From NCBI GenBank assembly GCA_001771135.1, contig MESW01000008.1, positions 87,630 to 151,629 on the forward strand: DNA of 64,000 nt, written 5' to 3'. The position numbers and the translations under genes were made by a program. Origin of the DNA: a candidate division CPR3 bacterium GWF2_35_18. Lineage in GTDB: Bacteria > Patescibacteriota > CPR3 > GWF2-35-18. Below the pieces are notes generated by a model. That model worked only from the letters and a program-made list of their open reading frames with translations, was not told the DNA's origin and ran no database searches. Of this stretch, positions 283 to 22,870 are shown piece after piece. How positions within the stretch are numbered: position 1 is the first letter of the stretch; each line of letters begins with the position of its first letter.

Positions 283-807
283 ATGAAGAAATTTTTAAAG
301 AGCCGTGAAGGTTTTACCTTAATCGAACTTTTAGTTGTCATTGCGATTATTGGTATCTTAGCCGCTGTAGTTGTGCTCGCGATCAACCCAGTAGCTATGA
401 TGCAAAAAGGTCGTGATTCCAATCGTAAATCAGACTTGGCTACTCTCTCAAAAGCAATTGATATTTATATGACTCAAGGGGCGACAGCTGTTCCTGGTGG
501 TGCTAATGTAAATCAAACTTCTCAGGGTATGACTAATTGTTGTAGTGGAACAGTGTCTACATGTACTGGTCCTACAACCTCTACAACCGGAGGATGGATA
601 ATTCCATTCGCTGTTTCTTGTGGAGTTGACCTTTCACCATATATCGCCAAAATTCCTATAGATCCAAATAATACTGCGACCTTAAGATATCATTATGATA
701 CTAATGCAACAGGAGATCGTTATTGTCTTGAGGCTGATATGGAACATGCTGATAGCGGACCGAGTTACAAAGTAGGAAGTGATTTAACGGGATGTGCTAC
801 ATACTAA
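283..807 (+). CDS. Type IV pilin / pseudopilin (prepilin-type N-terminal cleavage/methylation domain)
   Basis: N-terminus MKKFLKSREG|FTLIELLVVIAIIGILAAVV is a class III signal peptide with Glu at +5. GGAGG RBS at 266-270. Confidence 0.8.
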   Translation: MKKFLKSREGFTLIELLVVIAIIGILAAVVVLAINPVAMMQKGRDSNRKSDLATLSKAIDIYMTQGATAVPGGANVNQTSQGMTNCCSGTVSTCTGPTTSTTGGWIIPFAVSCGVDLSPYIAKIPIDPNNTATLRYHYDTNATGDRYCLEADMEHADSGPSYKVGSDLTGCATY

Positions 808-954
808 AGATTAATAGATGACGTAAATTGCATGCATTTACTAGAAAGAGGGGTTCTCATGAAACCCCTCTTTTGTATTTTTATTGACACCTTAATTCTT
901 CTCCCCTACAATGAATATCTAGATAATTCGATTGAAATGTCTGGAGGTTATAAC

Positions 955-1590
955 ATGCTCAAACTGCCAAAATCTATAAGTAACCCACTTGGTTTTACCC
1001 TGGTTGAATTACTAATTGTTATAACTATTATTGGAATTCTAGCTGGGGTGGTTACTCTGAATGTTACAAGTACCATTCCAACCTCTCGTGATGGTCGTCG
1101 CATAGCAGATATTAAAGCCTTAGAGGGTGCTTCGGAGCAATATTTTTCCGATAATAAAGATTATGTTCGTGGAAATACTTGTTATAATGATACCGATCCT
1201 TATTGTAAAGAGAATAGTCAATCAAATTACGGTGTTCCCTTTCTCAATACCCTTTTGACTTCGGGTTATATCAAATCGGATACCAAAGATCCTCTTAATG
1301 ATGGAACGTATGCGTATTGGTATGGTACTCCTTACGCTCCCAATCCTCCTGACGAATACATTCTTTTTGCTAGATTAGAGAGAAAAACTTCTGGAGAAAA
1401 TATTTATCAGCTTTATAATACTTCAGGAGCAGCTGTTAGTCCGGCTGTTTATTATTACGCTGTTTTTTCTGATTACAACTATTGGTACAATAATTTTCGG
1501 GATAACTCTTCTGCAACGTCTTGTACGCATGCAGGAGAATGGGCACATATACTTGTTGGAACAGCCGGTTGTTTACATAAAACATGGTAA
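955..1590 (+). CDS. Prepilin-type pilin-like protein
   Basis: Internal start MLKLPKSISNPLG|FTLVELLIVITIIGILAGV with GGAGG about 10 nt upstream. The track ORF from 832 carries an implausible leader. Exact start uncertain. Confidence 0.7.
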   Translation: MLKLPKSISNPLGFTLVELLIVITIIGILAGVVTLNVTSTIPTSRDGRRIADIKALEGASEQYFSDNKDYVRGNTCYNDTDPYCKENSQSNYGVPFLNTLLTSGYIKSDTKDPLNDGTYAYWYGTPYAPNPPDEYILFARLERKTSGENIYQLYNTSGAAVSPAVYYYAVFSDYNYWYNNFRDNSSATSCTHAGEWAHILVGTAGCLHKTW

Positions 1591-2507
1591 TTATCTTTTT
1601 TCTTTTTATTCTAGGGATTTCGATTGGTTCTTTTCTGGATGTCATTATTTCCAGAGTTTATCTTGATGTTTCGCCTAAATTGTCTAAAGATATTATCTCT
1701 TCTCGATCGGCATGCGCTTCTTGTAAGTATACTTTAAATTTTTGGGATCTTATTCCTCTACTCTCTTTTTTATTTCTGCGGGGAAAATGTCGTTACTGCG
1801 GGGCAAAAATTCCCTTCCGTTGTTTTTTGATGGAACTTTTTACAGGTATTTTGTTTGCTTTATATGGAATATTTGTTTTAAAAGGGTTTTCCCCATCAGC
1901 TTTACAAAACTGGATGCTCATTTTGTACTCTCTTATCGTAATTAGTTGCTTGATTATAATTTTCCAAGTAGATCTGCATAAATACATTATCCCAAATCCT
2001 ATCATTTTTTCTTTAATTGGTTTAGGTTTATTACTAGAACCAATTTGGGGATTGTTAAATTTAAAACACCAAATGATTCCACTCAATCATTTTTTATTTG
2101 ATATTTACTGGTTAATAAAAAGTTTATTAACCAATTTTGGGATAGAAATGTCTTTATCATATTCGCAACTACCGGTAATTTCTCCTTTTTTGAATCCGAT
2201 ATTCAGTGCTTTTTTTCTGGGATTATTCTTTTATTTAATCGTTTTTTTGACACGTGGAAAAGGAATGGGGATGGGAGATGTAAAACTTGCTTTCTTTATG
2301 GGGCTTTTTTTAGGTTGGCCGGAGAGTATTTTAGCACTATACCTTGCTTTTGTCTCTGGAGCTATTGTATCATTGATAATGGTATTAATAAAAAAGAAAA
2401 AGCTAAAGCAAAAAATTCCTTTTGGTCCATTTTTGCTCTTTGGTTTTTTTTGCACTTGGTTCTGGAATGCTGAAATTATATCTATTTTTGCAAGAATTGC
2501 TCATTAA
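1584..2507 (+). CDS. pilD: Prepilin peptidase (A24 family, PilD-like)
   Basis: Polytopic membrane protein. N-terminal CASC...CRYC zinc-binding motif typical of prepilin peptidases. GMGMGDVKL matches the catalytic GGDVKL region. Confidence 0.85.
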   Translation: MVIIFFLFILGISIGSFLDVIISRVYLDVSPKLSKDIISSRSACASCKYTLNFWDLIPLLSFLFLRGKCRYCGAKIPFRCFLMELFTGILFALYGIFVLKGFSPSALQNWMLILYSLIVISCLIIIFQVDLHKYIIPNPIIFSLIGLGLLLEPIWGLLNLKHQMIPLNHFLFDIYWLIKSLLTNFGIEMSLSYSQLPVISPFLNPIFSAFFLGLFFYLIVFLTRGKGMGMGDVKLAFFMGLFLGWPESILALYLAFVSGAIVSLIMVLIKKKKLKQKIPFGPFLLFGFFCTWFWNAEIISIFARIAH

Positions 2508-2529
2508 GTAAAAAGTTTTAAACAAAAAA

Positions 2530-3123
2530 ATGCCCAAGAATTTTTCGTGTAAATATTTTATTTCTTCCGCTGGTTTTACCTTGGTTGAATTATTGGTTGT
2601 GATGGCGATCATTTCAATCGTAACTATTATATCATTTCCTTCTTTCTCAACTTTTTCTCGTCAGCAAATATTGCAATCAGAAGCGGAAAAAATGGCTTCT
2701 CGGATAAAATTGGCTCAATCAAATGCCAGGTCTGGAAATCAGGGAGAAGATGAAACTGAAGAAGTGCAAGGGTTTATGATTGACTTTATAAACGTTGATT
2801 CCACTAATAAGTATTATCTCAAAAAGCATCGTAACGATCTAACAAATCCCTATAGCTATGTGGTGACAGAAGATGAATATACGCTAGATCAAAGTATTAC
2901 GAATATTACTTTTGAGGTTGGAGGAACTGAAGTTACAACTAAGGTATTTTATTTTCAATCTTCTCGCGGATATCTTTCATGTCTAACTGCTGTTCCTGTA
3001 AACGGGAATGATCAAGCTGAATGTGTTGTGTCTCAATTCAAAATTACTTTATTAAATTCCCAAGGAGAGGCTAAATATGTCTATATTGAAAGAGGAGGAG
3101 CTGTTTATGCAAGCGATTCTTAA
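2530..3123 (+). CDS. Pseudopilin / minor pilin (prepilin-type)
   Basis: ...ISSAG|FTLVELLVVMAIISIV N-terminal motif. Confidence 0.7.
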   Translation: MPKNFSCKYFISSAGFTLVELLVVMAIISIVTIISFPSFSTFSRQQILQSEAEKMASRIKLAQSNARSGNQGEDETEEVQGFMIDFINVDSTNKYYLKKHRNDLTNPYSYVVTEDEYTLDQSITNITFEVGGTEVTTKVFYFQSSRGYLSCLTAVPVNGNDQAECVVSQFKITLLNSQGEAKYVYIERGGAVYASDS

Positions 3124-3679
3124 AAAAATTCAAAAAGAACAGTCCGGAATGTCAATTATTGAGATTCTTGCGGCCGTAACATTTTCAATAGTAACTTTAG
3201 GAGCTTTGATAACCTTGGGTATTGTAACTTCTCGATCTTCGGACGCAGCAAGAAAAAGATCCCAAGCGGTTGAATTCGCAAAACAGGGAGTTGAAGCTGT
3301 CAGAGCTATTCGTGATAATGTTTCTGAGTTTCAAGGTCAAGAGTTTGCGGTTTGTGGAGAAAGCTGTTCTCCAGCCTGTGCCGGTTGGGATTGGGTATTG
3401 ATAAACGCCTGTCCTTGGAGTAATGGAACTTCGAATATGACTTTCTTTTTAGGTAGTAGTAGTGATAAGTGGAATCTACAATATGTGAATGATGGTGGAG
3501 ACGATTTGCATACCAGCTATCAGATTCCTGCAGATACTAATTTCTATCGGAAAGTTATTGTTGTTGAAGGACCTAGTGCTGATGGAAGTGATAAAGAAAT
3601 CGAGGTGCGTATCTCTTGGAAAGTGAGAGAGCAAGTTTTTACAGTTTCGGAAAGAATTCTTCTTACTGATTGGAGATAA
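3107..3679 (+). CDS. Pseudopilin / minor pilin (prepilin-type)
   Basis: MQAILKKIQKEQSG|MSIIEILAAVTFSIV with Glu +5. AGAGGAGGAG RBS lies 6 nt upstream of the ATG at 3107. Overlaps the previous gene. Confidence 0.65.
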   Translation: MQAILKKIQKEQSGMSIIEILAAVTFSIVTLGALITLGIVTSRSSDAARKRSQAVEFAKQGVEAVRAIRDNVSEFQGQEFAVCGESCSPACAGWDWVLINACPWSNGTSNMTFFLGSSSDKWNLQYVNDGGDDLHTSYQIPADTNFYRKVIVVEGPSADGSDKEIEVRISWKVREQVFTVSERILLTDWR

Positions 3680-3689
3680 TATTTAAATT

Positions 3690-4253
3690 ATGAATTATAA
3701 ATTTAGTATTACGAAAAATGAACAAGGTTTTACATTGGTTGAATTACTTGTTAGTCTAGTTATTTTTAGTATTGTGATGGGTCTTGGAAGTACGGCGTTG
3801 CTTTCGATTATGCAAAGTAATAATAAAGCAAAGTTGATTAACCGTTTGCGTACTGATGGTAGTCGCGTGATTGAAGAGATTGAAAGAGAAATTAAAGTTG
3901 CAGATGAGGTTCAGGCTTTAACTTCATATAACCTTGATTACCGAAAAAACGGTAATGAATATTATCGTTACAGCATCATTGATAATTCGAGTACTGATAA
4001 CAATAATTCAATCGTAAAAACACAATGTACTGGTTTGGGAATAGGATGTACAACAAGTTTATATACCTTAACTCCTACTGATAATCAAAATGGTTTGAAC
4101 GTGGCTCTCCCTCCAAGCTCTAGTTTTACTTATTATGACTATGGTGAAGTGAAAATAATCTTTACGTTTGAACAACCAGTGGGTTTGCCGGATAGACAAG
4201 AATATCAAGGAAGTATTACTTTAAATAGTAGTGTTACCTTACGAGATTATTAA
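3690..4253 (+). CDS. Pseudopilin / minor pilin (prepilin-type)
   Basis: MNYKFSITKNEQG|FTLVELLVSLVIFSIV. Confidence 0.7.
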   Translation: MNYKFSITKNEQGFTLVELLVSLVIFSIVMGLGSTALLSIMQSNNKAKLINRLRTDGSRVIEEIEREIKVADEVQALTSYNLDYRKNGNEYYRYSIIDNSSTDNNNSIVKTQCTGLGIGCTTSLYTLTPTDNQNGLNVALPPSSSFTYYDYGEVKIIFTFEQPVGLPDRQEYQGSITLNSSVTLRDY

Positions 4254-4270
4254 TATAGTAAGATAACAAA

Positions 4271-4301
4271 ATTGTTATACTCGAATTAACCTATTTTGCA
4301 A
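4271..4301 (-). promoter_or_regulatory. Promoter-like element in antisense orientation within the pilus locus
   Basis: Minus strand TTTGCA-17nt-TATAAC. 29 of 33 nt identical to the rpsP promoter element at 14890-14920, including the spacer. Confidence 0.35.
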
Positions 4302-4404
4302 ATTGAAATGACAGTAATTCGGATATAACTACCTGCGTAGGCTCAACTACTTTCATTTTTAAATTCAAGGAAGTTGGGTATATAATTATTTCAAGGAGTA
4401 GTAT

Positions 4405-5346
4405 ATGTTTCAATTCACCAAAAATGAACGAGCCCATTTGTCCCTCAAAGAAGAACAAGGTCAAGCTCTTGTCCTTGTGATTCTGATTATGTTAGTAGCT
4501 TTGACTGTTGGTGTTTCTGTTTCGTCTCAAGCTTTGATAGGTTCCAAAGAAGCTGTCTCTGAAGAACAGTCAGCTCAAGCATACGCCGTTGCCGAATCAG
4601 GAGCAGAGATTGCGTTGAAGCACTTAAAAACTTGTACTGAAGGAGTAGATTGTCTGACAGCTTCACCAGTTACTGGAAGCATTGGAGGTTCTACTTATAC
4701 CTATACTATTTCTTCGGCTTCGCTTTTGGCTTCGAATATTTATGAAACTAGACTTCAAAAAGATGAGGTTGTTCAGATTGATCTTAGTAATATTGCGGGT
4801 CTTACCAGCTCCAATAACGATGTTAAAATATATTTTTGGAGTGATGATTCTGATAGAGGTGTAAATGCAGATACTTCAAGTAATACATGTAGCCTTCCTG
4901 ATATTCCTGATGCGGCGATAGAATTTATCTATTTAGCTTATGATACTGGTTCCAATCCTTCTTATTTTGTTCGAGAGAAACAAGTTTATGATAGTTGCAC
5001 TGTTAGGCCTACTTCGAACAATTTTTCCGCTAGTGTGACAGGAGGAGTTATTGGTGGATATGATTATGACTTTTATGCTAAAAAAAGCGCTTTAGAAGAT
5101 TATTCTTTCAAAATGAATACAGATGATGAACAACGATTACTCAGGATCCGATCTTGGTACAACAATACTTGGATAGCTGTCGTTCTACATGATGTAAGTA
5201 TTCAGTTTCCGAATCAAGGTTATGAAATCGTATCTTCTGGAACAACGGGTGAGAATAAGCGTACAGTAAAGGTCACAAAGTCGAATCCTTATTTACCGGC
5301 AATCTTTGATTATGTTTTATTTTCCGGTGGAGATTTGCAAAAGTAA
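4405..5346 (+). CDS. PilX-like minor pilin / pilus assembly protein (N-terminal hydrophobic helix, no Glu+5)
   Basis: N-terminus ...EEQGQALVLVILIMLVALTVGVSV resembles the PilX_N type. AGGAG RBS. Position after the pilins. Confidence 0.5.
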   Translation: MFQFTKNERAHLSLKEEQGQALVLVILIMLVALTVGVSVSSQALIGSKEAVSEEQSAQAYAVAESGAEIALKHLKTCTEGVDCLTASPVTGSIGGSTYTYTISSASLLASNIYETRLQKDEVVQIDLSNIAGLTSSNNDVKIYFWSDDSDRGVNADTSSNTCSLPDIPDAAIEFIYLAYDTGSNPSYFVREKQVYDSCTVRPTSNNFSASVTGGVIGGYDYDFYAKKSALEDYSFKMNTDDEQRLLRIRSWYNNTWIAVVLHDVSIQFPNQGYEIVSSGTTGENKRTVKVTKSNPYLPAIFDYVLFSGGDLQK

Positions 5347-5440
5347 GAAAAAATTGCCAGGGATATTAAAAATTGTTAAGCTGATACTTATTAAAATATA
5401 TTTTGAAATGATATCTAAAAACCATCTGAAGGAGCTATCT

Positions 5441-7540
5441 ATGAGCCGTAAAATTTTTCTCACAGCCTTGGCTGTTTTATTTTTGATTATTGTATCCCCT
5501 CCCTCGACTCAAGCGGCTTTACAATCTATTCACTATCAAGGGAGATTGAGAGTAATAAATGGAGCTCTTGTTAATGGTGTCACGAGATATTTCAAAGTAT
5601 CCTACTATAATTCTCAAGTAGGGGGAACACTCTTTTGGGCAGATGGTACATGTTATAGTTCAGCTGTCTCATATGGCAATTTCGAACTTAATTTAAGTAC
5701 CGCTCCTGCTTCTTTGGGTTATTTTGATGCGACTAATTATTGGATGACGTTACAGATGTATTCAAATAGTAGCTGTACAACACTGTTAGATACTTTTCCT
5801 CGAGAGCAGATATCAGCTTCCCCTATTGCGATAACAAGTTCATATTTATCGGGAATTAGTGGTAGCGGAACAAATATTTTAGGTGATGCCAGAATTGGAT
5901 ATGTGACTAATGATAATGGAAGTACGGTAGGTTATGGTAATAGACTCTATTTTTCTGGTGGAGATGATTGGGCATCTTGGGATAGCGATAATTCAGATTC
6001 TATATATATAAGTAGGTATAACTCAGGTAGTGATTATACTGAATTAAGAGTTAATATTGGTGATAACGCCAGTCAAGCAGCGGATAAATTTGTTGTAGGA
6101 ACGACTGATCCTTCTTGGACTCCACGTTTAACAGCGCAGATGAATGGTTATGTTGGGATTAATAAGGGTAGTCCAGAGTATCCTTTAGATGTAGCTGGTT
6201 CTGGAAGTAATTATCTTGCAAGATTTCAAAGTCCTGATGGATATTTATTGTTAGGTCCTGCGAATAGTGGATGGGCTCATTTAGCAACGGATAGAGCACG
6301 TTTTTATATGAATACTGGTCTTACCGTAGATACCGGGAATATTGGTAGTTATAACGAAAATTTAAGTTTGCAAACCTCGGGAACAACTCGTTTTACTATT
6401 TTGAATAGTAATGGAAATATAGGTATTGACGATACGACTCCATCTCATAAACTTGATGTTAATGGTGATATTGCAATGAAAAGCGATATGCGAATGAATA
6501 CTAGTTTTTCCGTCGATAACGGAACATTAAGCATTTTTAATGATAGAATTGATGATGCTTGGGATTATAACAATTTTAGGATTTGTGCTAATTCTAATTG
6601 TAGTTATGGATTTCAGATAGAAACTTCTCCTGCAGGTAATCCTACTCTTAGTGCCATTGGACAAGATTTTATAACTATTAACGATGCTTTGTGGCTAACT
6701 ACGGCGCAAACTAGAGTTATAAATCTGGGTGAATCTATTATATCTGATCTTTGGGGAGCCGATGGAACAGATGATTTTGTCATCCATGGTCCTGGATGGG
6801 ATGGTTCTTCAAATAATAACTATGGTACAGTCGTGGGAGGGCATTTTTATTCTTATGGTGGTATGGATATTGGTTCCGGAAACGGCAGATTAGCAGGACA
6901 AGGACAACTATACGTACAAGGATTATCAACTTTTAATGGAGATATTGTTGTTGGTGAATATAATAGTGGTGTTGGTATGTTAACTTTGTATGGAGATTAT
7001 GATGGTCAATATTCCGCTGCGGGGATTGATATGCATTTTGGTGACGGTGATCTTTGGCATCTGGGTGCGCGTGGTTCTTTAGATGCAGATCCAAGTAAAG
7101 CCATTAAGTTCTGGTTCTATGATGATCCAGATGCTCCTGATCCAGATAGTTGGTCAAATCCTCTTACAATAAATCCACCAGGAAATACTTATGTAGTTAA
7201 AGTAAATGGAGCGATGTATGCAACTTCATATGCTTGTGCTTCGGATGAAAATTTAAAGAAAGATATCGAAGGTATTGATGGCAAAACAGCAATAGAAAAG
7301 TTTAAACAGATAAATGGAGTGAACTTCAAATGGAGAGAAGGAGATGAATCATTACAGCTTGGAGTGATTGCACAGGATGTAGAGAAAGTCTTTCCAGAAG
7401 CAGTAAAAACAGATGAAAATACCGGGTTCAAATCAGTTAATTATGATAACTTAGTAGCTCCTTTAATCGAAGCGGTGAAAGAACAGCAAAGAGAGATTGA
7501 AGCATTACAAAGAGAAATTGAAGATCTAAAAAATAATTAA
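5441..7540 (+). CDS. Secreted fibre-like protein with C-terminal peptidase S74 intramolecular-chaperone (auto-cleaving) domain
   Basis: GAAGGAG RBS and ATG at 5441. Signal peptide MSRKIFLTALAVLFLIIVSPPSTQA. The last about 99 aa, SDENLKKDIEGI...NGVNFKW...GVIAQDVEKVFPEAV...VNYDNLVAPLIEAVKE...coiled coil, match the endosialidase/tail-spike chaperone domain. Confidence 0.7.
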   Translation: MSRKIFLTALAVLFLIIVSPPSTQAALQSIHYQGRLRVINGALVNGVTRYFKVSYYNSQVGGTLFWADGTCYSSAVSYGNFELNLSTAPASLGYFDATNYWMTLQMYSNSSCTTLLDTFPREQISASPIAITSSYLSGISGSGTNILGDARIGYVTNDNGSTVGYGNRLYFSGGDDWASWDSDNSDSIYISRYNSGSDYTELRVNIGDNASQAADKFVVGTTDPSWTPRLTAQMNGYVGINKGSPEYPLDVAGSGSNYLARFQSPDGYLLLGPANSGWAHLATDRARFYMNTGLTVDTGNIGSYNENLSLQTSGTTRFTILNSNGNIGIDDTTPSHKLDVNGDIAMKSDMRMNTSFSVDNGTLSIFNDRIDDAWDYNNFRICANSNCSYGFQIETSPAGNPTLSAIGQDFITINDALWLTTAQTRVINLGESIISDLWGADGTDDFVIHGPGWDGSSNNNYGTVVGGHFYSYGGMDIGSGNGRLAGQGQLYVQGLSTFNGDIVVGEYNSGVGMLTLYGDYDGQYSAAGIDMHFGDGDLWHLGARGSLDADPSKAIKFWFYDDPDAPDPDSWSNPLTINPPGNTYVVKVNGAMYATSYACASDENLKKDIEGIDGKTAIEKFKQINGVNFKWREGDESLQLGVIAQDVEKVFPEAVKTDENTGFKSVNYDNLVAPLIEAVKEQQREIEALQREIEDLKNN

Positions 7541-7560
7541 ATTAATTAGAGGTTTAAATT

Positions 7561-8238
7561 ATGCATAATAGAGTATTTATTATCTTAAGTATTTTGTTTT
7601 TATTATTAATTACAAGTTTAAATATTGGACCTGTTTTTGCCGCTTGTGAAACAAGTGGTTGTTGTCCTGCAGGCTCGCAAAATTCATGTTGTGGTGGTGG
7701 TGATGGTGGTGGTGGTTATACCTATGATTGTACTGCATGTGGTACAACTCCTAGTCCTACGGGTAAATGTTGTATGGAATGGCCAGATGATAGTTGTGGT
7801 TGTCCTTCAGCAACTCATTGTGGCGGTGGCGGGTGCGGTTATGGAGATACATGTGGTTGTACTATTGGAGCCTGTAGTACTGGGGATGATGATGATTGTA
7901 ATCAACCATGTGGTGGGTGTTTTCCTTGCGATGCTTGTGCAACGATTGGAAGTATCCCTGAAGAAAATCCACTGATGTTAAGTTTTACAGATGCAGAATA
8001 TGGAAAGACTACAGAAGAAGAGATAACTTCTTGTCAAAATAGTTTGGTTGGAACAGTAAATGCATCTTCTTCAGATAAAGAGGTTGTATTAAGCAGTCTG
8101 AATACTCCAATTTGGAAATTGGCAATATTCGATACGTATGATTGGATAGACAATAATAAGACTTTACTTTTAGGCGGTATAAGTGGTGTTTTAATTCTGA
8201 TTGCTGTTTCGTTAAAATTAATTTTTAGAAATCATTAA
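7561..8238 (+). CDS. Cys/Gly-rich secreted protein with C-terminal membrane anchor
   Basis: Signal peptide, then about 100 aa with about 26 Cys (CC, CxxC, GGGG runs), then a C-terminal hydrophobic helix LLLGGISGVLILIAVSL. Confidence 0.6.
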   Translation: MHNRVFIILSILFLLLITSLNIGPVFAACETSGCCPAGSQNSCCGGGDGGGGYTYDCTACGTTPSPTGKCCMEWPDDSCGCPSATHCGGGGCGYGDTCGCTIGACSTGDDDDCNQPCGGCFPCDACATIGSIPEENPLMLSFTDAEYGKTTEEEITSCQNSLVGTVNASSSDKEVVLSSLNTPIWKLAIFDTYDWIDNNKTLLLGGISGVLILIAVSLKLIFRNH

Positions 8239-8239
8239 T

Positions 8240-9511
8240 ATGAAAAAGTATCTGCTTTTTTTATCTCTAATTATTATCGGAGTTCTTTCAATCGTATTTT
8301 TTAAATATTATTCCGATGAGATTAATGAAAAAAATAAAACATTAACGACAAGAAATAGCCTTATTTCCCAAAAAAAGGAAAGTTTAAAAACTGAGGATTT
8401 AGATATTTTACTAGACGGTAGCATACATAGCTCTGGTGAATGGTTACTTCGTAATCAGAAGGCAGATGGTTCTTTCAACTATGAACGTGATGTGACTACG
8501 GGTGAAATTACAGATAGCGAGAATAATATAGTGCGTCAATCAGGAACTTTATACGGAGTGGCAAAACTTTATAACTATACTAAAGACACTAGATACAAAG
8601 AAACACTTTTAAAAGGTTTTAATTATTTTGATACACTAGCCGAAACTAAAGATCTAGAGGGAACGACAGTTAGATACTTTAAAGAAGGCGGTAGTGTTCA
8701 AGCAAATACCGTAGCTCTACAGATTTTGGCGTATTTGGAACTTGCGAAAGCTGATCGCGATTTACCCTCTGACTTAAGTACAAAATTAGAAGAAATGGTT
8801 AATTTCATTAAATTATCTCAGCAAAGTAATGGTGCTTTTCAGAACTATTTTTTAAATAAGATCAAGATTGAGTGTTGGGAATCAGATTATAACAATGGAG
8901 AATCCTTTTTTGCTTTAACTAGTTACTATAAATATTCATCCGATGAAACTTTAAGACCTCTTTTAGAAATATCCGCAAATTACTTTTTAGAAAAGTACAA
9001 AGACTTTAATATTGAATTTTACTCTTGGGGGATGATGGGTTTTTCGCAGCTTTATGAAATTACTGGAAATACTAACTACCGAGATTATATTTATCAAAAT
9101 ACTGATAATATGATAAATGTAGCTGGGACGAACTTTCTCGGGATTGGGGCGTATTTAAAATCGACAAATGAAGCAAATCCATTACCAGATTATAGTCAAA
9201 TAGTTCAGACAGAGGGACTGCTATATGTTTATAAAATAGCGGTAATGGATAATCCAGAAAAAGCTTCGACTTATAAGAATGCGATTATAAATAGTCTAGC
9301 GTTTCATGCAGTCTTTCAGTCCCCTTGGGAAGAAACTCTTCCAAACAGAATATATGATGTTGTCAAAGGTGGTTTTTGTAACCGTTCGGACTGTTCTATC
9401 CAAAGGATTGATATGGTTCATCATGCTTTAAGTGCATTTATAGATGCTCTTAATTTTATCGATAATAGTAACCTGCAACTTTCTGTTGCAAATAGTATAA
9501 ATACAAAATAA
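8240..9511 (+). CDS. Membrane-anchored protein with alpha/alpha-toroid (prenyltransferase/squalene-oxidase-like) repeats
   Basis: N-terminal TM helix. Repeated Q..(D/N)G(S/A)F motifs (QKADGSFNYE, QQSNGAFQNYF) typical of alpha-toroid repeat proteins. No LanC-type Cys/His motifs. Confidence 0.45.
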   Translation: MKKYLLFLSLIIIGVLSIVFFKYYSDEINEKNKTLTTRNSLISQKKESLKTEDLDILLDGSIHSSGEWLLRNQKADGSFNYERDVTTGEITDSENNIVRQSGTLYGVAKLYNYTKDTRYKETLLKGFNYFDTLAETKDLEGTTVRYFKEGGSVQANTVALQILAYLELAKADRDLPSDLSTKLEEMVNFIKLSQQSNGAFQNYFLNKIKIECWESDYNNGESFFALTSYYKYSSDETLRPLLEISANYFLEKYKDFNIEFYSWGMMGFSQLYEITGNTNYRDYIYQNTDNMINVAGTNFLGIGAYLKSTNEANPLPDYSQIVQTEGLLYVYKIAVMDNPEKASTYKNAIINSLAFHAVFQSPWEETLPNRIYDVVKGGFCNRSDCSIQRIDMVHHALSAFIDALNFIDNSNLQLSVANSINTK

Positions 9512-9513
9512 AG

Positions 9514-11487
9514 ATGTTCAGGCGACTTAAAGAATCAAAATGGAATAGATTTATAATCTTATACCTGTTTGCAATTATTTGTTTGATATCCCCTACTCTT
9601 TCTTATGCAAAATTGACTGGGACTACCTATGAGATTGAGGACGAACTTTTTGATAATGGAGGCGGAATGTCAACTGGAACTGCCTATCAATTAGATAATT
9701 CTAGTATTAGCCAATGGGTTCAAGGGAAGTTTACTGGCGGAAGTTATGATGCTCTTGTAGGTCACTGTTACAAAGATGTTACTTTACCTGTTTGTTCTGG
9801 AATGAGTTTTTATTTACCTGATCCAAATAATATTTTGCTGGTGAGAGTGAATTGGGGGGCGACAGATCAAAATAACAACGAGTTTGATACTGGAGTGTAT
9901 GGATATGATGTTGATTATCGTATCGATGGTGGAGCGTGGACTAACCTTTATCCAACAGTTAATAATGCCTATGGCGCAAATACTTCTGCAGATCTGGTTA
10001 TTAACCCCACCAGTACTTATACTTTTAGAGTTTGGGCTTTAGATAATGTGGGAAACGTGAACGTTCTTTGTGGGATGGATAGTGTTCAATTTGGAGCTTT
10101 GTGGTTTCAGGGAGTTGATGGATATGTGCGTGCAGAAAATAATCTCGTCTGTGATATCTCTTCTTTTTCAACCGATGGATATGTTGACTTTGATAGTTCT
10201 GGAGCAGGAGGGTTAAAAGGTGGTATTCCTTCTGCCGGAGGGAATATTGACCAAGGTTATGGAGATTTTTCTTCGCGTGGTAATAACGAAGGATGGAATG
10301 TTTCTCCAAACTATCTAATAGCTGAAACTAATCATTACAACTATGCTTGGTTTTACAGTAATTTGAATGGACAAGAAGCAGCGTTAGTTCCAGATGGTGG
10401 AGATGGGACTGTTAACGCCACTGAGCTAATTAATGCGATAAACAGTACCGTAACTACCAGAATTTTTGCCAGCGATACAGATGCTTTTATCTGGGGTCGT
10501 AGAGGAAGTAGTTATAATAGTTGTCGAAATACGAGTGGCGGTTACAACTCAAGCTCAACAACAAGCAGACTTGGTCAGTACGATGAAACATCGGGGCCAA
10601 TTGCTACTTATAATTGTTATAGATCCTATTTTGAGTTTGATACAGGTAATATTCCTGATGATGCCAGTGTTCTTGACGTGAAATTGGGACTAAAAGTAGC
10701 TACGGATCTTTCGACAGTAGACTTCGATGTACGTATTAATAAATTTGATTGGAATTCTCCTATGTCTGCAGCAAATAGAGAAGCAAATTATGATGCAGCA
10801 GGTACTGTTTTTGATCAAGTTTGGCGTAATACTTCTGGGATAAGCACGGGAGTTTATTATAGTAATACGACATCTCTAGATACAAATTGGATTAATAAAA
10901 CGGGAATAACTTCCTATCAGTTGCGTTCTTCAAGAGATGTTTCAGCGATCATTCCTACTACTGCAGAATTTATTGACCTGATGACGGCAGAAAGTACAGG
11001 GACTACGAACGACCCTTATCTAGATGTTACCTATACAAATACTGGAATTTATTATGTCGATGGAGATTTAAATATTAATGGAAGTATCAATGCCCTTCAA
11101 AATAAAAATGTAATTATTTTTGTAAATGGAGATATTACGTTTAGTTCAAACCCAGTTGTGCACAGTTCCAGTAATTTATCTTTTATTTCAAACGGAGATG
11201 TGACTATTAATAACGCTGTAACGCAGATTGATAATTCTTTGATTTTTACAGATGGAAATTTGGTAACCGCTTCTGCCTCTACAAACGCAAATCAACTTCT
11301 TGTTGATGGAAGTTTAATCAGCAAAGGAATATTAAATTTAAGCCGGAAACGAGATATTTCTATTCAGGAAAACTTAAGTTCTCCTACAGAAAAAGTGACC
11401 TTAAATCCGGATGCATATTTTACATTAGGTCTTAATGAAAATCTGTTGGGAATACCTAGAGTTATATGGGAAGAAGTGACTGAATAA
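9514..11487 (+). CDS. Large secreted protein; C-terminal region with beta-helix-like repeats
   Basis: Signal peptide ...ICLISPTLSYA. Repetitive NGD(I/V)T..N motifs near the C-terminus. Translationally coupled to the preceding gene. Confidence 0.5.
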   Translation: MFRRLKESKWNRFIILYLFAIICLISPTLSYAKLTGTTYEIEDELFDNGGGMSTGTAYQLDNSSISQWVQGKFTGGSYDALVGHCYKDVTLPVCSGMSFYLPDPNNILLVRVNWGATDQNNNEFDTGVYGYDVDYRIDGGAWTNLYPTVNNAYGANTSADLVINPTSTYTFRVWALDNVGNVNVLCGMDSVQFGALWFQGVDGYVRAENNLVCDISSFSTDGYVDFDSSGAGGLKGGIPSAGGNIDQGYGDFSSRGNNEGWNVSPNYLIAETNHYNYAWFYSNLNGQEAALVPDGGDGTVNATELINAINSTVTTRIFASDTDAFIWGRRGSSYNSCRNTSGGYNSSSTTSRLGQYDETSGPIATYNCYRSYFEFDTGNIPDDASVLDVKLGLKVATDLSTVDFDVRINKFDWNSPMSAANREANYDAAGTVFDQVWRNTSGISTGVYYSNTTSLDTNWINKTGITSYQLRSSRDVSAIIPTTAEFIDLMTAESTGTTNDPYLDVTYTNTGIYYVDGDLNINGSINALQNKNVIIFVNGDITFSSNPVVHSSSNLSFISNGDVTINNAVTQIDNSLIFTDGNLVTASASTNANQLLVDGSLISKGILNLSRKRDISIQENLSSPTEKVTLNPDAYFTLGLNENLLGIPRVIWEEVTE

Positions 11488-11572
11488 ATGAAGACAGTGG
11501 TTGACAGTAAATACCAGCTGCTTTACACTGGAATAATTATAGTTTTGATAATAATTTTTCGTAAAGGATAAA

Positions 11573-12613
11573 ATGGCAGATAATTTTTTAGGTCTTGATA
11601 TCGGTTCCAATAATATTAAAATTGTGGAGTTAAAAAGAACAAGTAACGGTTTATTGCTTCAAGCCTATGGGAGTATCGAAACTCCTAAGGGAGCCTCAAA
11701 ATCAGAGTCTCAAGCAGATCTGGAAGAGATTGCTACTGCTACCAGAAAATTGATGAAGGAAATACATGTAACTACAAATAAGGTAGTAGTTGGTCTTCCT
11801 GAATCAGTTGTTTTTACCAGAGTAGTAGAATTACCAGTAATGAGTGATCAAGAATTAAAAACGGCTATGCGTTGGGAAGCAGAACAATTTATTCCAATTC
11901 CTCTAAAAGATGTGAAATATGATTACGAGGTAGTAAAAAGACCTACCAAAGAGTCTAAAGACTCTAAAGATAAAATGAGTGTTTTTTTTGTAGCCGTTCC
12001 GAATACAACGATTGAGAGATATTTAAAGATTATGAAAGTTGCAGCTTTAGAGCCGGTGGCTTTTGAAACAGAACTTTTAGCCTTGGTTCGTTCTTTGTCT
12101 CCAGAAGGAAACGCTTCCCCATCAACTTTAATTATTAATATTGGAGCGGAAACAACAGATTTGTGTATTGTTTCTAAGGGAAATATTGCCTTTACACGTA
12201 GTATTTCTTCCGGTGGAAACGCTCTTTCAAAAGCAATCGCACAAGAGCTAGGTTTTGAGATGACACAGGCAGAAGAGTATAAAAAGAGTTACGGATTACT
12301 TGAAAATGAGCTTGAAGGTAAGATCCAAGAGATTATTAAGCCAATTTTTGATGTAATTGTTGGAGAGGTTGAGAGAGGTTTACTTTTTTATCAAACACAT
12401 CATCCTACTGACTCAGTTAAAAGAATTATTCTTTGTGGTGGGACTGCAAAACTTCCGGGAATTGTGATGTATTTAGCCGGTGCTTTAGACTTAGAAGTAC
12501 AACTTGGCGATCCATGGAATAACGTCAAAAAAGGATCACCAGATTTAGCCAAGAAACTCGAAGAACATGCCCCTTTGTACGCGGTGGCGGTTGGATTGGC
12601 AATGAGAGTTTAG
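11573..12613 (+). CDS. pilM: Type IV pilus assembly ATPase-like protein PilM
   Basis: N-terminus FLGLDIGSNNIKIVEL, actin-like fold signature of PilM. Size matches. Confidence 0.85.
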   Translation: MADNFLGLDIGSNNIKIVELKRTSNGLLLQAYGSIETPKGASKSESQADLEEIATATRKLMKEIHVTTNKVVVGLPESVVFTRVVELPVMSDQELKTAMRWEAEQFIPIPLKDVKYDYEVVKRPTKESKDSKDKMSVFFVAVPNTTIERYLKIMKVAALEPVAFETELLALVRSLSPEGNASPSTLIINIGAETTDLCIVSKGNIAFTRSISSGGNALSKAIAQELGFEMTQAEEYKKSYGLLENELEGKIQEIIKPIFDVIVGEVERGLLFYQTHHPTDSVKRIILCGGTAKLPGIVMYLAGALDLEVQLGDPWNNVKKGSPDLAKKLEEHAPLYAVAVGLAMRV

Positions 12614-12691
12614 GATACTTTCTAACTCCTGTTGCAAAAAAATAGAAAATGAGCATATAATTTAAATATACCTTAAAAATAGGAGTCTTTA

Positions 12692-13291
12692 ATGGCTGTC
12701 AATATCAACCTTCTCCCAGATATAAAGTCTGATGAGAAGAAAAAGAAAAAACTGCTCCAAACGATAAACATCGTTTCTTTGGCAGTCACAGGATTTATCT
12801 TACTCATTGCAATTGGGGTTTTTGTTATTAACCAGATTTTGAACTCAAATCTTAGTGAGATCAATGAAAGTATTTTGGCTCAGGAAAAAATCGTTGATGA
12901 GAATTTAGAGGCAGAAACGGTCTTAGTTGGTCTACAGAGTCGTTTGAGTTCCATTGACTCTATCCTAGTTACTCGAAAAAAATACTCTGTTTTCCTGACC
13001 AATTTTACCAGTTACGTTCCACAATCAATAATAATTAATGATATGACTGTTGGTTCTGATGGTAGTGTTTTAATAAACGGAGAAGCTCCTTCATATGAGA
13101 AGTTGGCGGGATTTGTTTTAGTGCTTTCTGGGGAGAATACTCTCGAGTCTACAGAAGAAGCTACCGTTGACGTTTCTTCAAATTCGATTTATAGCAATGT
13201 TTCTTTGAACTCGGTTTCACGTGGTGATGACGGTGGGAGTGTTCGATTTACAATCAGCTTTACAGCTAAGGAAGGAGCTTTTCATGAATAA
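12692..13291 (+). CDS. pilN: Type IV pilus assembly protein PilN
   Basis: N-terminal INLLP motif followed by a single TM helix. Follows pilM. Confidence 0.75.
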   Translation: MAVNINLLPDIKSDEKKKKKLLQTINIVSLAVTGFILLIAIGVFVINQILNSNLSEINESILAQEKIVDENLEAETVLVGLQSRLSSIDSILVTRKKYSVFLTNFTSYVPQSIIINDMTVGSDGSVLINGEAPSYEKLAGFVLVLSGENTLESTEEATVDVSSNSIYSNVSLNSVSRGDDGGSVRFTISFTAKEGAFHE

Positions 13292-13973
13292 TATACTTTC
13301 AAAAGTTAAAGAGTATCTTATCCTGATTATTTGTGGTTTCATTTCAGTTATTTCGTTAGTCATCATTATTCCAGGAATTCAAAGTATCTTTTCCACTAGA
13401 GAAGAGATGACTGCTAAGGAAAGAACTAGAGATCTTTACGATCAGAAAATTGATATTCTTTCAAGCCAAAATTTACCTGGGATCAAAAAAGATCTGATTA
13501 ATAGCTTATTAGCTTTGCCATCTTCTTATGATTCTCCAAGTCTTTTGAATGCTTTGGAAAAAATAGCCACGGCTTCTGGAGTTTCCATTTCAGGTCTACA
13601 ATTTTCTCAACCTTCTACTGCTGGAGGTGGTGAAGCCGTTACGACTGCGACCAAAAACACTTTTGCTTTATCTACAAACTCTGATTATGCTCATATAATC
13701 GCCTTATTTAGGAATTTTGAAAATACTCTACCATTATTTACAATTGAAAATATCGGGTTGCGTTCTGGAGGAGAAGGATCTGCTGATCTTTCTCTTTCTT
13801 TTGGAATTTCTTCTTATTATCAATCTTTACCAACTACTCTTGGTGATAAAACAACTCCGGTAGCTGATCTTGCAGTTTCTCAAAAAGAACTTCTTACGGC
13901 TTTGGAAGGATATAGTAACTATCCTTTAGTTCCTGATACATCCGGAGTCGGGAAAACGAATCCTTTTAAATAA
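13284..13973 (+). CDS. pilO: Type IV pilus assembly protein PilO-like
   Basis: AAGGAAGGAG RBS. Start overlaps the pilN stop. Single N-terminal TM. Position after pilN. Confidence 0.55.
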   Translation: MNNILSKVKEYLILIICGFISVISLVIIIPGIQSIFSTREEMTAKERTRDLYDQKIDILSSQNLPGIKKDLINSLLALPSSYDSPSLLNALEKIATASGVSISGLQFSQPSTAGGGEAVTTATKNTFALSTNSDYAHIIALFRNFENTLPLFTIENIGLRSGGEGSADLSLSFGISSYYQSLPTTLGDKTTPVADLAVSQKELLTALEGYSNYPLVPDTSGVGKTNPFK

Positions 13974-21184: not shown

Positions 21185-22375
21185 TTACATTCGTGAGAAT
21201 CTCGCGTGAGCTTCTTTAGCAAATTGACTCATGATTTTATAGTTTGCGTTATCATGAATTGAGGAGAGACCAAATGGAATTAAGGTTCTTCCTGTTCCTG
21301 GTTTGAGTAGACCAAACCAGATTTCGGGTGGAGAAATTATTTCCATTAATTTCCCTTGTTGTAATATTGTAGCGCATATCTGAGGTTTGATCACTGTAGG
21401 AATTGCTCCTACAGTCGATAACATCTTTTGTAAGCGAATGTTTTGAGGTTTATTTTTGAGGATAAACCGGATAAAACGAACGTTTTTGAAAAGGCGTTCA
21501 GAGATTTCCTCCAATGTTTGTAGATTAAGATTTTCTTGTGGGAAAACCTCAGCAAACTGGTTTCCATAGGTTTTGATTACGGTTTCATTTTGATTATGAC
21601 CGTTATTAATTGTTCTTGAGCTTATTTCTGGATAACTTTGGGTATTACTTAACCAGATGCCAGAAGCTAGAGTGGCGAGAAGATCGTTTTCGGAATCAAG
21701 ATAAAGAGGTTCAGAATACCACTTTAGAGCTTCAGAATTCCAGAAACGATATGAGATTTGAAAGAATTCTGTGAGAGGAACTCTTTTTGATACTTGCCAC
21801 GCAGTAGCGATGAGGGGTTCAAAACCAAAAGCTGTCATCATCAGATGGTTCATTGCGATAGACAGCATTTGCGGTCCTCCGGGGATAGTATAGCCATTGT
21901 TTACAACCGTGATTCCTGTACGAACTTCAGCCGAAAGTCCGATCGTGGTTTGCACTAGATTCGGATGTTCAAAGAGCTCCCTTATGCTAATGAGTATGGT
22001 TATAGAACCAGGAAAGTCCATAAATTGAGGATTTTTGGCGCAACGAACAACATCCCAGAATAGCTTATTTCTAGTAAGCTGAAAACTGGAAGTAGCAATT
22101 GGGGTATTGTCTGTTTCATCGTAGGAGATCCAGGTTAAGAGTTTCATTTCTCGCATTTCGGCTGCGATTTCTTCTGGTGTTTGTCCGGCCAGAATACCAT
22201 GTCCGTGATGTCCATAAACAGATTCAACTATTTGTTTATGATGAGAGGCAAAAAGTTTCAACTCCTGATTTTGAGTTAAGAGCTTGAGAGAGGAAACGGT
22301 ATGGAAATGCATTCCAGATGCGTTTGCTCTTTGAGTTAATCTTTCAATTTGAGTGGTTAAGATTCCAGTACCCAT
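21185..22375 (-). CDS. Hypothetical protein (396 aa) under T-box control; visibly higher G+C than its neighbours
   Basis: Uninterrupted ORF. AAGGAG RBS 8 nt upstream of the ATG. No family recognised by eye. Preceded by a canonical T-box leader. Confidence 0.6.
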   Translation of the reverse strand: MGTGILTTQIERLTQRANASGMHFHTVSSLKLLTQNQELKLFASHHKQIVESVYGHHGHGILAGQTPEEIAAEMREMKLLTWISYDETDNTPIATSSFQLTRNKLFWDVVRCAKNPQFMDFPGSITILISIRELFEHPNLVQTTIGLSAEVRTGITVVNNGYTIPGGPQMLSIAMNHLMMTAFGFEPLIATAWQVSKRVPLTEFFQISYRFWNSEALKWYSEPLYLDSENDLLATLASGIWLSNTQSYPEISSRTINNGHNQNETVIKTYGNQFAEVFPQENLNLQTLEEISERLFKNVRFIRFILKNKPQNIRLQKMLSTVGAIPTVIKPQICATILQQGKLMEIISPPEIWFGLLKPGTGRTLIPFGLSSIHDNANYKIMSQFAKEAHARFSRM

Positions 22376-22454: not shown

Positions 22455-22870
22455 AAAAAGCTCGTCCTTAAATAGAAAATTTTCTATTTAAGGACGAGCT
22501 TTTAATGAACTCGTGGTACCACCTTTAATTTCAGGTACAAAAAACACTCCAATTATGGAGTGTCCTGCATTTAATCATTTTATACCTGCTTGTTGATTCA
22601 AGTGCTTGACTTTGCAGTGACACTTTAGCCTTTGATAACGGAGGCATTCCGTCCCGCATTTAGTGCGAGAAGCTCCAGAGGGTATTTCGATTTTTTTACG
22701 TTCTGCAGGTTTTCAGGATTCCCTTGCTTTCTAAAAGTTACCGTAAAATTCTACTATTTCTCTTTCATCGCTTTTATACCGAATTGACTTAAATTGAACA
22801 TCAAAATAACGTTAATTCGGAGATATCCAACTACAATCTTATTATTTAATGAAGTTGAATATATAAAATT
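22455..22870 (-). promoter_or_regulatory. T-box riboswitch leader (tRNA-sensing antiterminator) upstream of the 396-aa unknown protein and tyrS
   Basis: Minus strand AAAUUAAAGGUGGUACCACGAG (complement of 22510-22531) against T-box consensus AAUUAGGGUGGNACCGCG. The antiterminator is AAGG[UGGUACC]ACGAG paired with CUCGU-CCUU, a 7-nt bulge. The terminator GCUCGUCCUUAAAUAG/CUAUUUAAGGACGAGC (22460-22499) is followed by U6. The Stem I start GCGAUGAAAGAGAAAUAGUAG carries a K-turn-like GA motif and an AGUA S-turn. Confidence 0.8.

Follow-up and report, generated by a model that had tools for sequence, protein, structure and literature searches.

The type IV pilus (T4P) operon of the candidate division CPR3 bacterium GWF2_35_18, an ultrasmall, groundwater-dwelling organism, carries a four-gene cassette between its PilX/GspK-like minor pilin gene and pilMNO (5441-11487, all on the + strand; positions refer to the window, which is the whole 64,000-nt stretch of DNA analysed). 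The cassette is real, conserved, pilus-linked and of adhesin type; placement of any of its components at the pilus tip is hypothetical. It represents a plausible host-attachment kit composed of three to four fast-evolving genes for exported proteins, and its components resemble adhesion/recognition proteins, namely an S74 protein resembling tail fibres and mosaic adhesive trimers (MATs) and a protein with a CBM96-like fold. As an overall interpretation we tentatively favour an extracytoplasmic, rapidly diversifying recognition/adhesion cassette that is kept inside the T4P operon of CPR3-type Patescibacteria and probably expressed together with it, a reading that we consider quite possible, albeit short of probable. 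The locus is organized as follows:

283-807, + strand: major pilin candidate
832/955-1590, + strand: second pilin
1584-2507, + strand: prepilin peptidase PilD (Peptidase_A24 match)
2530-3123, 3077-3679 and 3690-4253, + strand: three minor pilins (N_methyl matches among these and the two preceding pilins)
4405-5346, + strand: PilX/GspK-like large minor pilin, 313 aa, directly 5' of the cassette
5441-7540, + strand: gene 1, Sec-exported MAT/tail-fibre-like protein, 699 aa (the ORF extends to 5306)
7241-7540, + strand: Peptidase_S74 intramolecular chaperone domain (PF13884), C-terminal in gene 1
7561-8238, + strand: gene 2, Cys-rich exported protein, 225 aa, with signal peptide and C-terminal TM anchor
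8240-9511, + strand: gene 3, N-terminally membrane-anchored (alpha/alpha)6-toroid protein, 423 aa (CAZyme-like fold, weak similarity)
9514-11487, + strand: gene 4, exported scaffold protein, 657 aa, signal peptide ending SYA
10456-11043, + strand: CBM96/DNRLRE-like beta-sandwich inserted in gene 4 (about aa 315-510; confidently modelled)
11041-11313, + strand: short right-handed beta-helix of gene 4, DUF7305-like (about aa 510-600, ~90 residues)
11573-12613, + strand: pilM, directly 3' of the cassette (PilM_2 Pfam E 1.8e-60; TIGR01175 215 bits)
12692-13291, + strand: pilN (PilN E 1.3e-5)
about 13284-13973, + strand: pilO/GspM-like gene (T2SSM_b E 8.7e-5; gene calls in L001)

The upstream part thus comprises five genes of pilin type, the PilD gene and finally the 313-aa gene, whose product has sub-cutoff matches to PilX_N (E 0.017) and NCBIfam GspK (E 4.5e-4); its counterpart in lineage L045 matches PilX_N with E 5.7e-5. 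PilM, PilN and the PilO/GspM-like protein are encoded downstream. As originally predicted, the four cassette ORFs are consecutive, tightly packed and on the same strand, with gaps of 20, 1 and 2 nt in gene order, and they are regarded as real genes because each protein has homologues elsewhere. Promoter and terminator scans of the locus yielded results at chance level; the gaps of 95 and 85 nt could accommodate separate promoters. The cassette is free of mobile-element genes and of compositional anomaly, and no repeats flank it. All four proteins possess an N-terminal hydrophobic export or anchor segment of Sec or signal-anchor type. None of them matches N_methyl or PilX_N or has a class III prepilin leader, whereas the neighbouring pilins do match N_methyl. 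As originally stated, no canonical T4P component is among the four. The absence of a PilY1/PilC-type tip adhesin was likewise corroborated, as no family match was obtained for any locus protein scanned (Pfam/NCBIfam; cassette proteins to E 0.1). The genomic position is PilY1-like, the cassette lying directly 3' of the PilX/GspK-like gene here and in L045.

Gene 1 had been described as a 744-aa signal-peptide protein ending in an S74 domain. The length applies to the TTG-extended ORF; the likelier start is the ATG at 5441, which is preceded by GAAGGAG, opens the signal peptide and gives 699 aa. The signal peptide (aa 1-25) is directly followed by a beta-rich N-terminal 'IHYQGRL' domain ('xYQGxL' type), shared with the fibre protein of L045 and, among others, with the fibre proteins P0025, P0053 and P0073, and further by fibre repeats with the motif 'GxVGIG..P..KLDV' and a conserved module (236-353). 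Signal peptide and S74 domain were both recovered: PF13884 scores 61.2 bits (cutoff 22) at residues 601-656 of 699, and the SDxxxK motif is intact as SDENLK (601-606) with the Ser601/Lys606 dyad. In relatives, the motif reads SDERLK (L008) or SDLNLK (L043). The S74 region includes a C-terminal coiled-coil, and self-cleavage is predicted to occur just before Ser601. Similarity searches linked gene 1 to the distal subunit of the phage S16 long tail fibre (PDB 6f45; E 8.4e-6), its C-terminus to PHROG tail-fibre families (down to E 1.5e-31) and its repeats to the Bdellovibrio MAT fibre Bd2439 (PDB 8ol4; E 1.6e-3) and many other fibre proteins. Judged by its sequence, the protein most resembles the MAT fibres of predatory bacteria. 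The cassette fibres terminate either in an S74 cap (window, L008, L043) or in a conserved non-S74 cap (L014, L015, L044, L045), as in MATs, whose C-terminus is either S74 (SDxxxK) or variable and non-S74. Shufflon_N similarity was absent from the cassette fibres. Full-text literature searching returned no account of S74 fibres encoded in pilus operons, consistent with the original assessment of this arrangement as undescribed.

For gene 2, export and anchoring were confirmed, whereas the Cys count was corrected from 26 to 22, of which 21 lie within aa 29-126; an acidic linker and the C-terminal transmembrane anchor (aa 199-224) complete the protein. No family match was found in Pfam, NCBIfam or PHROG. 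Homologues occupy the same cassette position in L043 (53% identity) and L045 (45%), and the small protein at this position in L044 has few Cys. Gene 3 has its TM segment at the N-terminus, as anticipated for a membrane protein, and its toroid assignment rests on weak GH127/GH88/GH76 similarities. That is, the GH127 catalytic-domain match scores 26.0 bits (cutoff 24.9) and is partial (profile positions 78-198 of 376), homologues have precomputed GH88/GH127/GH76 matches, and the family profile hits partial regions of GH76 (9.9e-6) and PL2 lyase (2.5e-5) structures in the PDB. Invariant residues of the family include D216-Y-N-N-G-E221, C380, C385 and H395. PHROG gave no matches for genes 2 and 3 and one marginal match for gene 4 (E 0.005, unknown function).

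Gene 4 was indeed found to encode a secreted protein, but not one that is mainly beta-helix as formerly proposed. It is a composite, comprising a conserved 'LTGTxYEIxDE..DNGGG' N-terminus, an FN3-like region, the CBM96-like insert, the short beta-helix and a conserved C-terminal tail. Confidence in the predicted structure is limited to the central domain, which adopts a beta-sandwich fold matching solved CBM96 modules. Scores against the corresponding families are below cutoff (CBM96/DNRLRE NCBIfam NF033679, 24.2 bits vs 34; DUF7305, PF23981, 24.9 bits vs 27, precomputed as a weak match), and relatives have weak CBM96 Pfam matches. The model shows beta-sandwich and beta-helix and no PilY1/PilC beta-propeller. 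Neither gene 4 nor gene 1 contains a recognisable catalytic domain. Homologues conserve the mature N-terminus that begins at the predicted cleavage site, and the CBM96-like insert is missing in L043, L014 and L015. The scaffold family is very rare, with five word-index matches; the genome collection contains no member, and the metagenome scan yielded one.

The cassette recurs in six other metagenomic lineages (L007/L008, L043, L015, L014, L044, L045) in the order fibre, small anchored protein, optionally toroid, and beta-helix protein. Wherever the contig extends that far, it adjoins pilM or a PilX-like gene: it runs into pilM in L007/L008, L043 and L015 and follows a PilX-like gene in L045. 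On the original question whether the four genes always travel with pilMNO, pilus adjacency holds in related lineages, whereas the four-gene unit does not, as only four of the seven lineages have the toroid gene; the conserved unit consists of three genes. Since every syntenic locus belongs to a fairly close relative (PilM identity at least about 64%), part of the synteny is attributable to common descent. In the more distant CPR lineage L017 (PilM 43%), extra pilins occupy the slot instead of the cassette. Sequence turnover is pronounced even at short distance: in a relative with a 96% identical PilM, gene 4 retains 71% identity, the fibre body cannot be aligned, BLAST finds no match for the Cys-rich protein and a toroid gene is lacking. 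The cassette is therefore a hypervariable diversification hotspot between conserved pilus genes, in which three functional types keep the same order while their sequences are replaced, including an exchange of the S74 cap for the other C-terminal cap type. Occurrence of the same genes without pilus genes, which had been named as potential counter-evidence, was encountered in part, namely for gene 1-related fibre proteins (in Pacebacteria and elsewhere) and for distant gene 3 toroid homologues.

In the favoured interpretation of a recognition/adhesion cassette, gene 1 would be exported via Sec and trimerise with the aid of its C-terminal S74 chaperone, which would then cut itself off at Ser601 to leave a phage-tail-fibre/MAT-like fibre. 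The conserved N-terminal domain may hold this fibre at the cell surface, with the membrane-anchored gene 2 product as the most likely tether, as suggested by gene adjacency only. Gene 4 would act as a secreted lectin-like protein with a conserved scaffold and swappable inserts, here a putative glycan-binding fold of CBM96 type, and is the likeliest of the four proteins to act with the minor pilins, as PilY1 does elsewhere. Gene 3 may provide an optional surface-anchored glycan-processing enzyme. Pili would extend and retract to draw a partner cell or surface near, whereupon fibre and lectin could confer specificity.

The original suggestion of a tip or adhesion apparatus is thus supported in its adhesion part by the adhesion/recognition-like components, but so far not in its tip part, given the lack of a prepilin leader and the presence of two membrane anchors. 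A true pilus-tip complex, in which the fibre and/or the 657-aa protein dock on the minor-pilin/PilX-like priming complex and ride out on the tip, thereby replacing PilY1 with a retractable, exchangeable grappling hook, appears doubtful to us. The cassette does begin exactly at the pilY1 slot of fimU-pilVWXY1E-type operons, i.e. after the PilX-like gene, and ends at pilM; this position is kept in related lineages, the locus proteins scanned gave no PilY1/PilC match, and gene 4 could dock through its conserved mature N-terminus. PilY1 and TM7x PilX2 likewise have no prepilin signals (PMC11623550). However, none of the four cassette proteins has a pilin-like N-terminus, the membrane anchors of genes 2 and 3 argue against travel to the pilus tip, Bdellovibrio MAT fibres sit on the cell surface, and fibre homologues exist outside pilus loci. 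The occurrence of individual components away from pilus genes, together with the extreme content turnover at a fixed position, synteny documented among relatives only and the different filling of the slot in L017, would also suit a variable surface-protein island that is merely sited in an insertion-tolerant slot without a functional tie to pili and encodes surface fibres, S-layer-associated proteins or phage-receptor decoys. We consider this unlikely, as the same three functional types persist in the same order through sequence replacement and cap swap, only 1-20 nt separate the genes, all of which lie on the operon strand, and signs of mobility or foreign composition are lacking.

The CAZyme-like similarities of gene 3 raise the question of a glycan-degrading or envelope-remodelling kit, in which the (alpha/alpha)6 enzyme, together with the CBM96/beta-helix protein, would cleave capsule or wall polysaccharide of a host, or the bacterium's own envelope for pilus passage, and the fibre would be a carrier of the phage tailspike depolymerase type. 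In solved examples, chondroitinase and alginate lyase carry appended CBM96 modules, and phage endosialidases and tailspikes are capped by S74 domains. However, the putative enzyme is absent from three of seven lineages, catalytic domains are not recognisable in genes 1 and 4, and the beta-helix is short, making this scenario improbable. A remnant of a prophage tail-fibre module is very improbable: the strong PHROG matches of the gene 1 C-terminus contrast with its Sec signal peptide, with the conservation of the cassette across lineages within a chromosomal operon, with the near-complete PHROG silence of genes 2-4, and with the lack of other phage genes, an integrase or repeats nearby.

Among known systems, CBM96/DNRLRE modules (PDB 8wab, 7vbo) share ~13% sequence identity with the central domain of gene 4, which here sits on a non-enzymatic scaffold and not on a polysaccharide lyase. 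The tail fibres and tailspikes of phages that end in an intramolecular chaperone domain (K1F endosialidase type; S16, PDB 6f45) share with gene 1 the S74 Ser-Lys dyad, the C-terminal coiled-coil and fibre repeats, and with the cassette the rapid modular exchange of receptor-binding parts. In contrast to these, gene 1 is a cellular gene with a signal peptide in a chromosomal operon and has no virion genes nearby. The shufflon-variable PilV tip adhesins of IncI thin (type IVb) pili correspond in concept, as pilus-linked adhesins with a diversified recognition part. However, PilV is a true pilin varied by site-specific recombination, whereas the cassette diversifies between lineages via gene and domain replacement.

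The closest parallel to gene 1 is provided by MATs, surface-displayed, glycan-recognising adhesins of Bdellovibrio bacteriovorus and other predators that attach to other bacteria (Caulton et al. 2024, PMC10769870). They combine a Sec signal peptide, directly followed by a conserved beta-rich N-terminal domain (~130 aa), with a long Gly/Ser/Asn-rich fibre with 'GNVGIG...KL.V' repeats and mosaic, swappable distal parts, a layout that gene 1 appears to share. One MAT subgroup is capped by S74 and the other by non-S74 caps. MATs are longer (~1000 vs 699 aa), and Patescibacteria are not among the examples in the supplementary table of PMC10769870. Moreover, gene 1, whose trimer formation and surface display are putative, sits in a T4P operon within a fixed cassette alongside Cys-rich anchor and lectin-like scaffold proteins. 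The cell-side anchor of MATs is unknown, and an interplay with T4P was raised by the authors as a point of interest (PMC10769870). PilY1 of Pseudomonas and Myxococcus and PilX1/PilX2 of the Saccharibacterium TM7x bear no sequence or fold relation to the cassette proteins, the L-type lectin fold of PilX1 not being among the matches, and the cassette differs in being multi-gene, with a tail-fibre-like protein and membrane-anchored partners. Nevertheless, these proteins are likewise large, non-pilin Sec-type exports with lectin-like domains, are encoded with minor pilins, and have a proposed or demonstrated role in adhesion or host binding, which in Patescibacteria serves episymbiosis. The T4P loci of TM7x encode such large, lectin-like proteins lacking PilD signals, and efficient binding to the host requires PilX2 (PMC11623550).

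The four-gene cassette occupies positions 5441-11487 (+) of the window, and both its coordinates and its gene order match the original prediction. It is part of a single pilus locus on the + strand (283-13973), and PilC is encoded immediately upstream of the window. The source organism, CPR3 bacterium GWF2_35_18, is a Patescibacterium from groundwater of the Rifle aquifer, and the identical gene 4 sequence is also present on GCA_001771165.1, GCA_000991025.1 and several JGI and ENA contigs. The locus is arranged as follows:

Features of the pilus locus (coordinates, strand, description)
283-807, +, pilin
832-1590, +, pilin (true start probably near 955)
1584-2507, +, PilD peptidase
2530-4253, +, three minor pilins
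4405-5346, +, PilX_N/GspK-like gene, 313 aa
5441-11487, +, four cassette genes
11573-12613, +, pilM (E 1.8e-60)
12692-13291, +, pilN
about 13284-13973, +, pilO/GspM-like gene

The cassette genes are spaced by 20, 1 and 2 nt and are separated from the flanking pilus genes by 95 and 85 nt, respectively. Scans for promoters and terminators did not rise above chance level. GC content is about 0.33-0.39 throughout the window without a compositional anomaly at the cassette, and a repeat search detected no flanking repeats; nothing points to a mobile element at this site. As to the second pilin, Met42 (nt 955) is probably the true start, since ~41 extra N-terminal residues precede the prepilin motif in the ORF 832-1590 (+). 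A 12-bp terminator-like hairpin (844-874) lies 3' of the first pilin gene, and a promoter-like site with 11/12 matches (884-912), the best in the region, lies ahead of the shorter second-pilin start. The remainder of the window contains housekeeping genes. It also includes a T-box leader (Rfam RF00230, 100 bits; 22487-22777, -) upstream of a 396-aa ORF (21185-22375, -), and a 1262-aa ORF (56162-59950, -) with a GLSGIGKTRF P-loop and no Pfam match, which sits in the stretch of highest GC (0.39-0.40) and may encode a STAND-type NTPase.

Gene 1 likely encodes 699 aa, as its ATG at 5441 follows a GAAGGAG ribosome-binding site and is the start of a signal peptide. The proposed S74 C-terminus was recovered with 61.2 bits against a cutoff of 22 (residues 601-656), including the catalytic SDxxxK motif in the form SDENLK and a terminal coiled-coil. 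This C-terminus is similar to the chaperone part of the S16 phage long tail fibre (PDB 6f45, E 8.4e-6) and to many PHROG tail-fibre families (best E 1.5e-31). The N-terminal 'IHYQGRL' domain of gene 1 is common to other fibre proteins, and its body contains 'GxVGIG..P..KLDV' repeats. There is also a weak but specific similarity (E 1.6e-3) to the Bdellovibrio protein Bd2439 (PDB 8ol4), one of the fibres termed mosaic adhesive trimers (MAT; PMC10769870). One module of gene 1 (residues 236-353, window about 6146-6499) shares 55-63% identity over ~80-118 aa with proteins from other phyla, a level that suggests recent mosaic exchange. The 63% match is P0031, a Bacteroidetes protein with the precomputed Pfam label PF26696. 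P0031 is named PilV tip adhesin and matches Shufflon_N; a Shufflon/PilV identity of the cassette fibres was rejected, as these give no Shufflon_N match.

Gene 4 has 1605 relatives among 1.8 billion representative proteins, nearly all of which match residues about 315-510 only. This region reaches pLDDT values above 90 in an alignment-based model, which is confident for residues about 300-575 only; the single-sequence AlphaFold model, with a mean pLDDT of 36, was useless. Outside residues 315-510, gene 4 is a rare scaffold common to few proteins. Its mature N-terminus (LTGTxYEIxDE..DNGGG) and its tail are conserved, and it further contains an FN3-like part and a short beta-helix (DUF7305 slightly under threshold; no literature on this domain was found). 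In scaffold relatives the CBM96 domain (gene 4 residues about 315-510) is missing or replaced by another insert, and thus this sugar-binding-type fold is an insertion in a conserved frame. PDB sequence searches with gene 4 returned nothing useful. The gene 4 family alignment identified a single contig in metagenomes, one already among the loci compared, and no relative in a collection of species-representative genomes. The same collection yielded no CPR3 genome when searched with PilM, the best match being 43%. As two NCBI assemblies carry the locus, this collection seems to lack the CPR3 lineage.

The product of gene 2 measures 225 aa and combines a signal peptide and an acidic linker with a transmembrane segment at its C-terminus; 21 of its 22 cysteines fall within residues 29-126, and it matches no family in Pfam, NCBIfam or PHROG. 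Gene 3 (423 aa, N-terminal anchor) shows weak similarity of the (alpha/alpha)6 CAZyme type, including a partial GH127 match barely over threshold. Its homologues carry precomputed GH88, GH127 and GH76 matches, and its family profile hits GH76 mannosidase (9.9e-6) and PL2 lyase (2.5e-5); a PDB sequence search gave nothing useful. A LanC-like thioether cyclase, considered for a toroid beside a Cys-rich protein, was dismissed, LanC-type matches (E about 1.7) being far weaker than the CAZyme matches. In a Beckwithbacteria locus (L047, 3276-6387, +), a toroid homologue (33%) directly follows genes for a 444-aa protein with 27 cysteines and a 206-aa anchored protein with 9 cysteines, and no fibre, pilM or other pilus genes were found nearby. 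This arrangement hints that toroid and Cys-rich proteins may constitute a separate sub-module. Another toroid homologue, 30% identical, stands alone.

Gene contexts of relatives were taken from metagenome contigs, and identities refer to the window proteins:

Gene order at related metagenomic loci
L007/L008 (PilM 96%): S74 fibre, 181-aa Cys-rich protein, gene 4 homologue (71%), pilM; toroid gene absent
L043 (PilM 88%): S74 fibre, Cys-rich protein (53%), toroid (61%), gene 4 homologue (57%, without CBM96), pilM, pilN, pilO
L015 (PilM fragment 64%): fibre with a different C-terminal cap, Cys-rich protein, gene 4 homologue, pilM
L014: same trio as L015 (fibre, Cys-rich protein, gene 4 homologue), then contig end
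L044: 1333-aa fibre, two small anchored proteins, toroid (46%), gene 4 homologue
L045: PilX_N-type gene, two small proteins, 1860-aa fibre (N-terminal motif as in the window fibre), Cys-rich protein (45%), toroid (34%), start of a gene 4 homologue

These contents define a conserved unit of fibre, small anchored protein and scaffold protein, in which the toroid is optional. The trio is flanked by pilus genes wherever contigs extend far enough. Fibres in L014, L015, L044 and L045 end in a non-S74 cap, a conserved domain with sub-threshold similarity to Peptidase_G2 and no PDB relative by profile search. Fibre-type homologues in Pacebacteria and elsewhere lie outside pilus loci. In L017, the more distant CPR locus with 43% PilM identity (its record is labelled Gammaproteobacteria), the slot contains extra pilins. 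The gene before pilM, preceded by a second minor-pilin set, encodes a PilX_N-type protein of ~600 aa with a beta-helix (8089-9905, +; split by an apparent frameshift near 9084), which was discarded as a gene 4 relative (no relation by tblastn; hhalign probability 1.5%). Considering the fibre and toroid homologues elsewhere, the L017 slot and the absence of the scaffold from the genome collection, the pilus linkage is real, yet its documentation is confined to one clade.

Comparison of the window with L007 revealed how unevenly the locus diverges. PilM is 96% and gene 4 71% identical, whereas the fibres are alignable over the S74 end only (about 42-45%), the Cys-rich proteins give no BLAST match, the toroid gene is present in the window and absent in L007, and DNA similarity begins only within gene 4. 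Such a contrast between conserved PilM and a divergent cassette would be expected for exposed recognition proteins. In L007, 3' of pilM where pilN is expected, an ~80-nt element occurs twice (4832-4910 and 5153-5238), and a partial copy (86% over 49 nt) is found in the window at 4339-4385 (-), just upstream of the PilX-like gene; a small intergenic repeat, a mobile element and a misassembled L007 end are all conceivable.

All four cassette products are predicted to be extracytoplasmic. In agreement with the original prediction, none is a canonical type IV pilus component, and none is a pilin or PilY1-like by Pfam and NCBIfam. The further idea that the whole module forms a pilus-tip complex is ruled out, because two products are membrane-anchored; that the gene 1 or the gene 4 product is truly located at the tip we regard as unlikely. 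The most economical reading is a cassette for surface recognition and adhesion that is kept in the pilus operon. Rival explanations are a passive variable island, a glycan-degrading kit (compare the CAZyme-type matches of gene 3) and a prophage remnant (compare the tail-fibre matches of gene 1). According to the recognition/adhesion reading, the cassette would probably be expressed together with the pilus operon, and the fibre would be held on the cell surface, gene 2 being the obvious candidate tether and gene 4 the component likeliest to cooperate with minor pilins.

A life attached to other microbes is assumed for Patescibacteria (CPR), with type IV pili as the best-supported attachment organelle. 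To our knowledge, host-specificity determinants are not known for almost all of their lineages. The cassette, with its exported tail-fibre-like, lectin-like and anchor products, provides a concrete and testable candidate for uncultivated CPR3. Even if its coupling to the pilus were purely positional, it would still be a hypervariable surface-locus marker useful for CPR3 strain typing. A bolder and rather improbable scenario is that CPR3-type episymbionts carry a self-cleaving, tail-fibre-like trimeric adhesin and a lectin-like scaffold on a retractile type IV pilus or at its base. If true, this would be a grappling hook with exchangeable warheads that follows hosts by exchanging recognition modules between lineages, and the Cys-rich anchor would be the receptor, on the cell side or the pilus side, that has long been sought for the conserved N-terminal domain of MAT-type fibres.

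For each part of the cassette a relative is already known: MAT fibres, S74 chaperones, CBM96 modules and pilus-linked adhesins in Patescibacteria. In line with the original remark that an S74 fibre domain in a pilus operon is an undescribed arrangement, full-text searches of a paper library retrieved no account of S74 or tail-fibre-like proteins encoded in type IV pilus operons, nor of this cassette. The cassette joins two separate literatures, on predator MAT fibres and on pilus-dependent episymbiosis. The defining traits of MAT fibres are a signal peptide, a beta-rich and conserved N-terminal domain, trimeric assembly of the fibre, and a tip that is either of the S74 type (SDxxxK) or variable and non-S74. 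They are exposed on the surface of the predator and attach to glycans of the prey, what anchors them on the cell side is an open question, and Patescibacteria are absent from the list of examples (PMC10769870). Gene 1 shares the signal peptide and the S74 end, as judged here from sequence, and the cassette offers a genomic clue to how the conserved N-terminus of these fibres is kept on the cell. Tip swapping in MAT and phage tail fibres parallels the variability of the cassette, and, like host-range determinants of phages and predators, the cassette proteins evolve much faster than the surrounding pilus genes. Within Patescibacteria, TM7x provides a precedent: its pilus loci encode large lectin-like proteins without PilD signals, and PilX2 is required for efficient host binding (PMC11623550).
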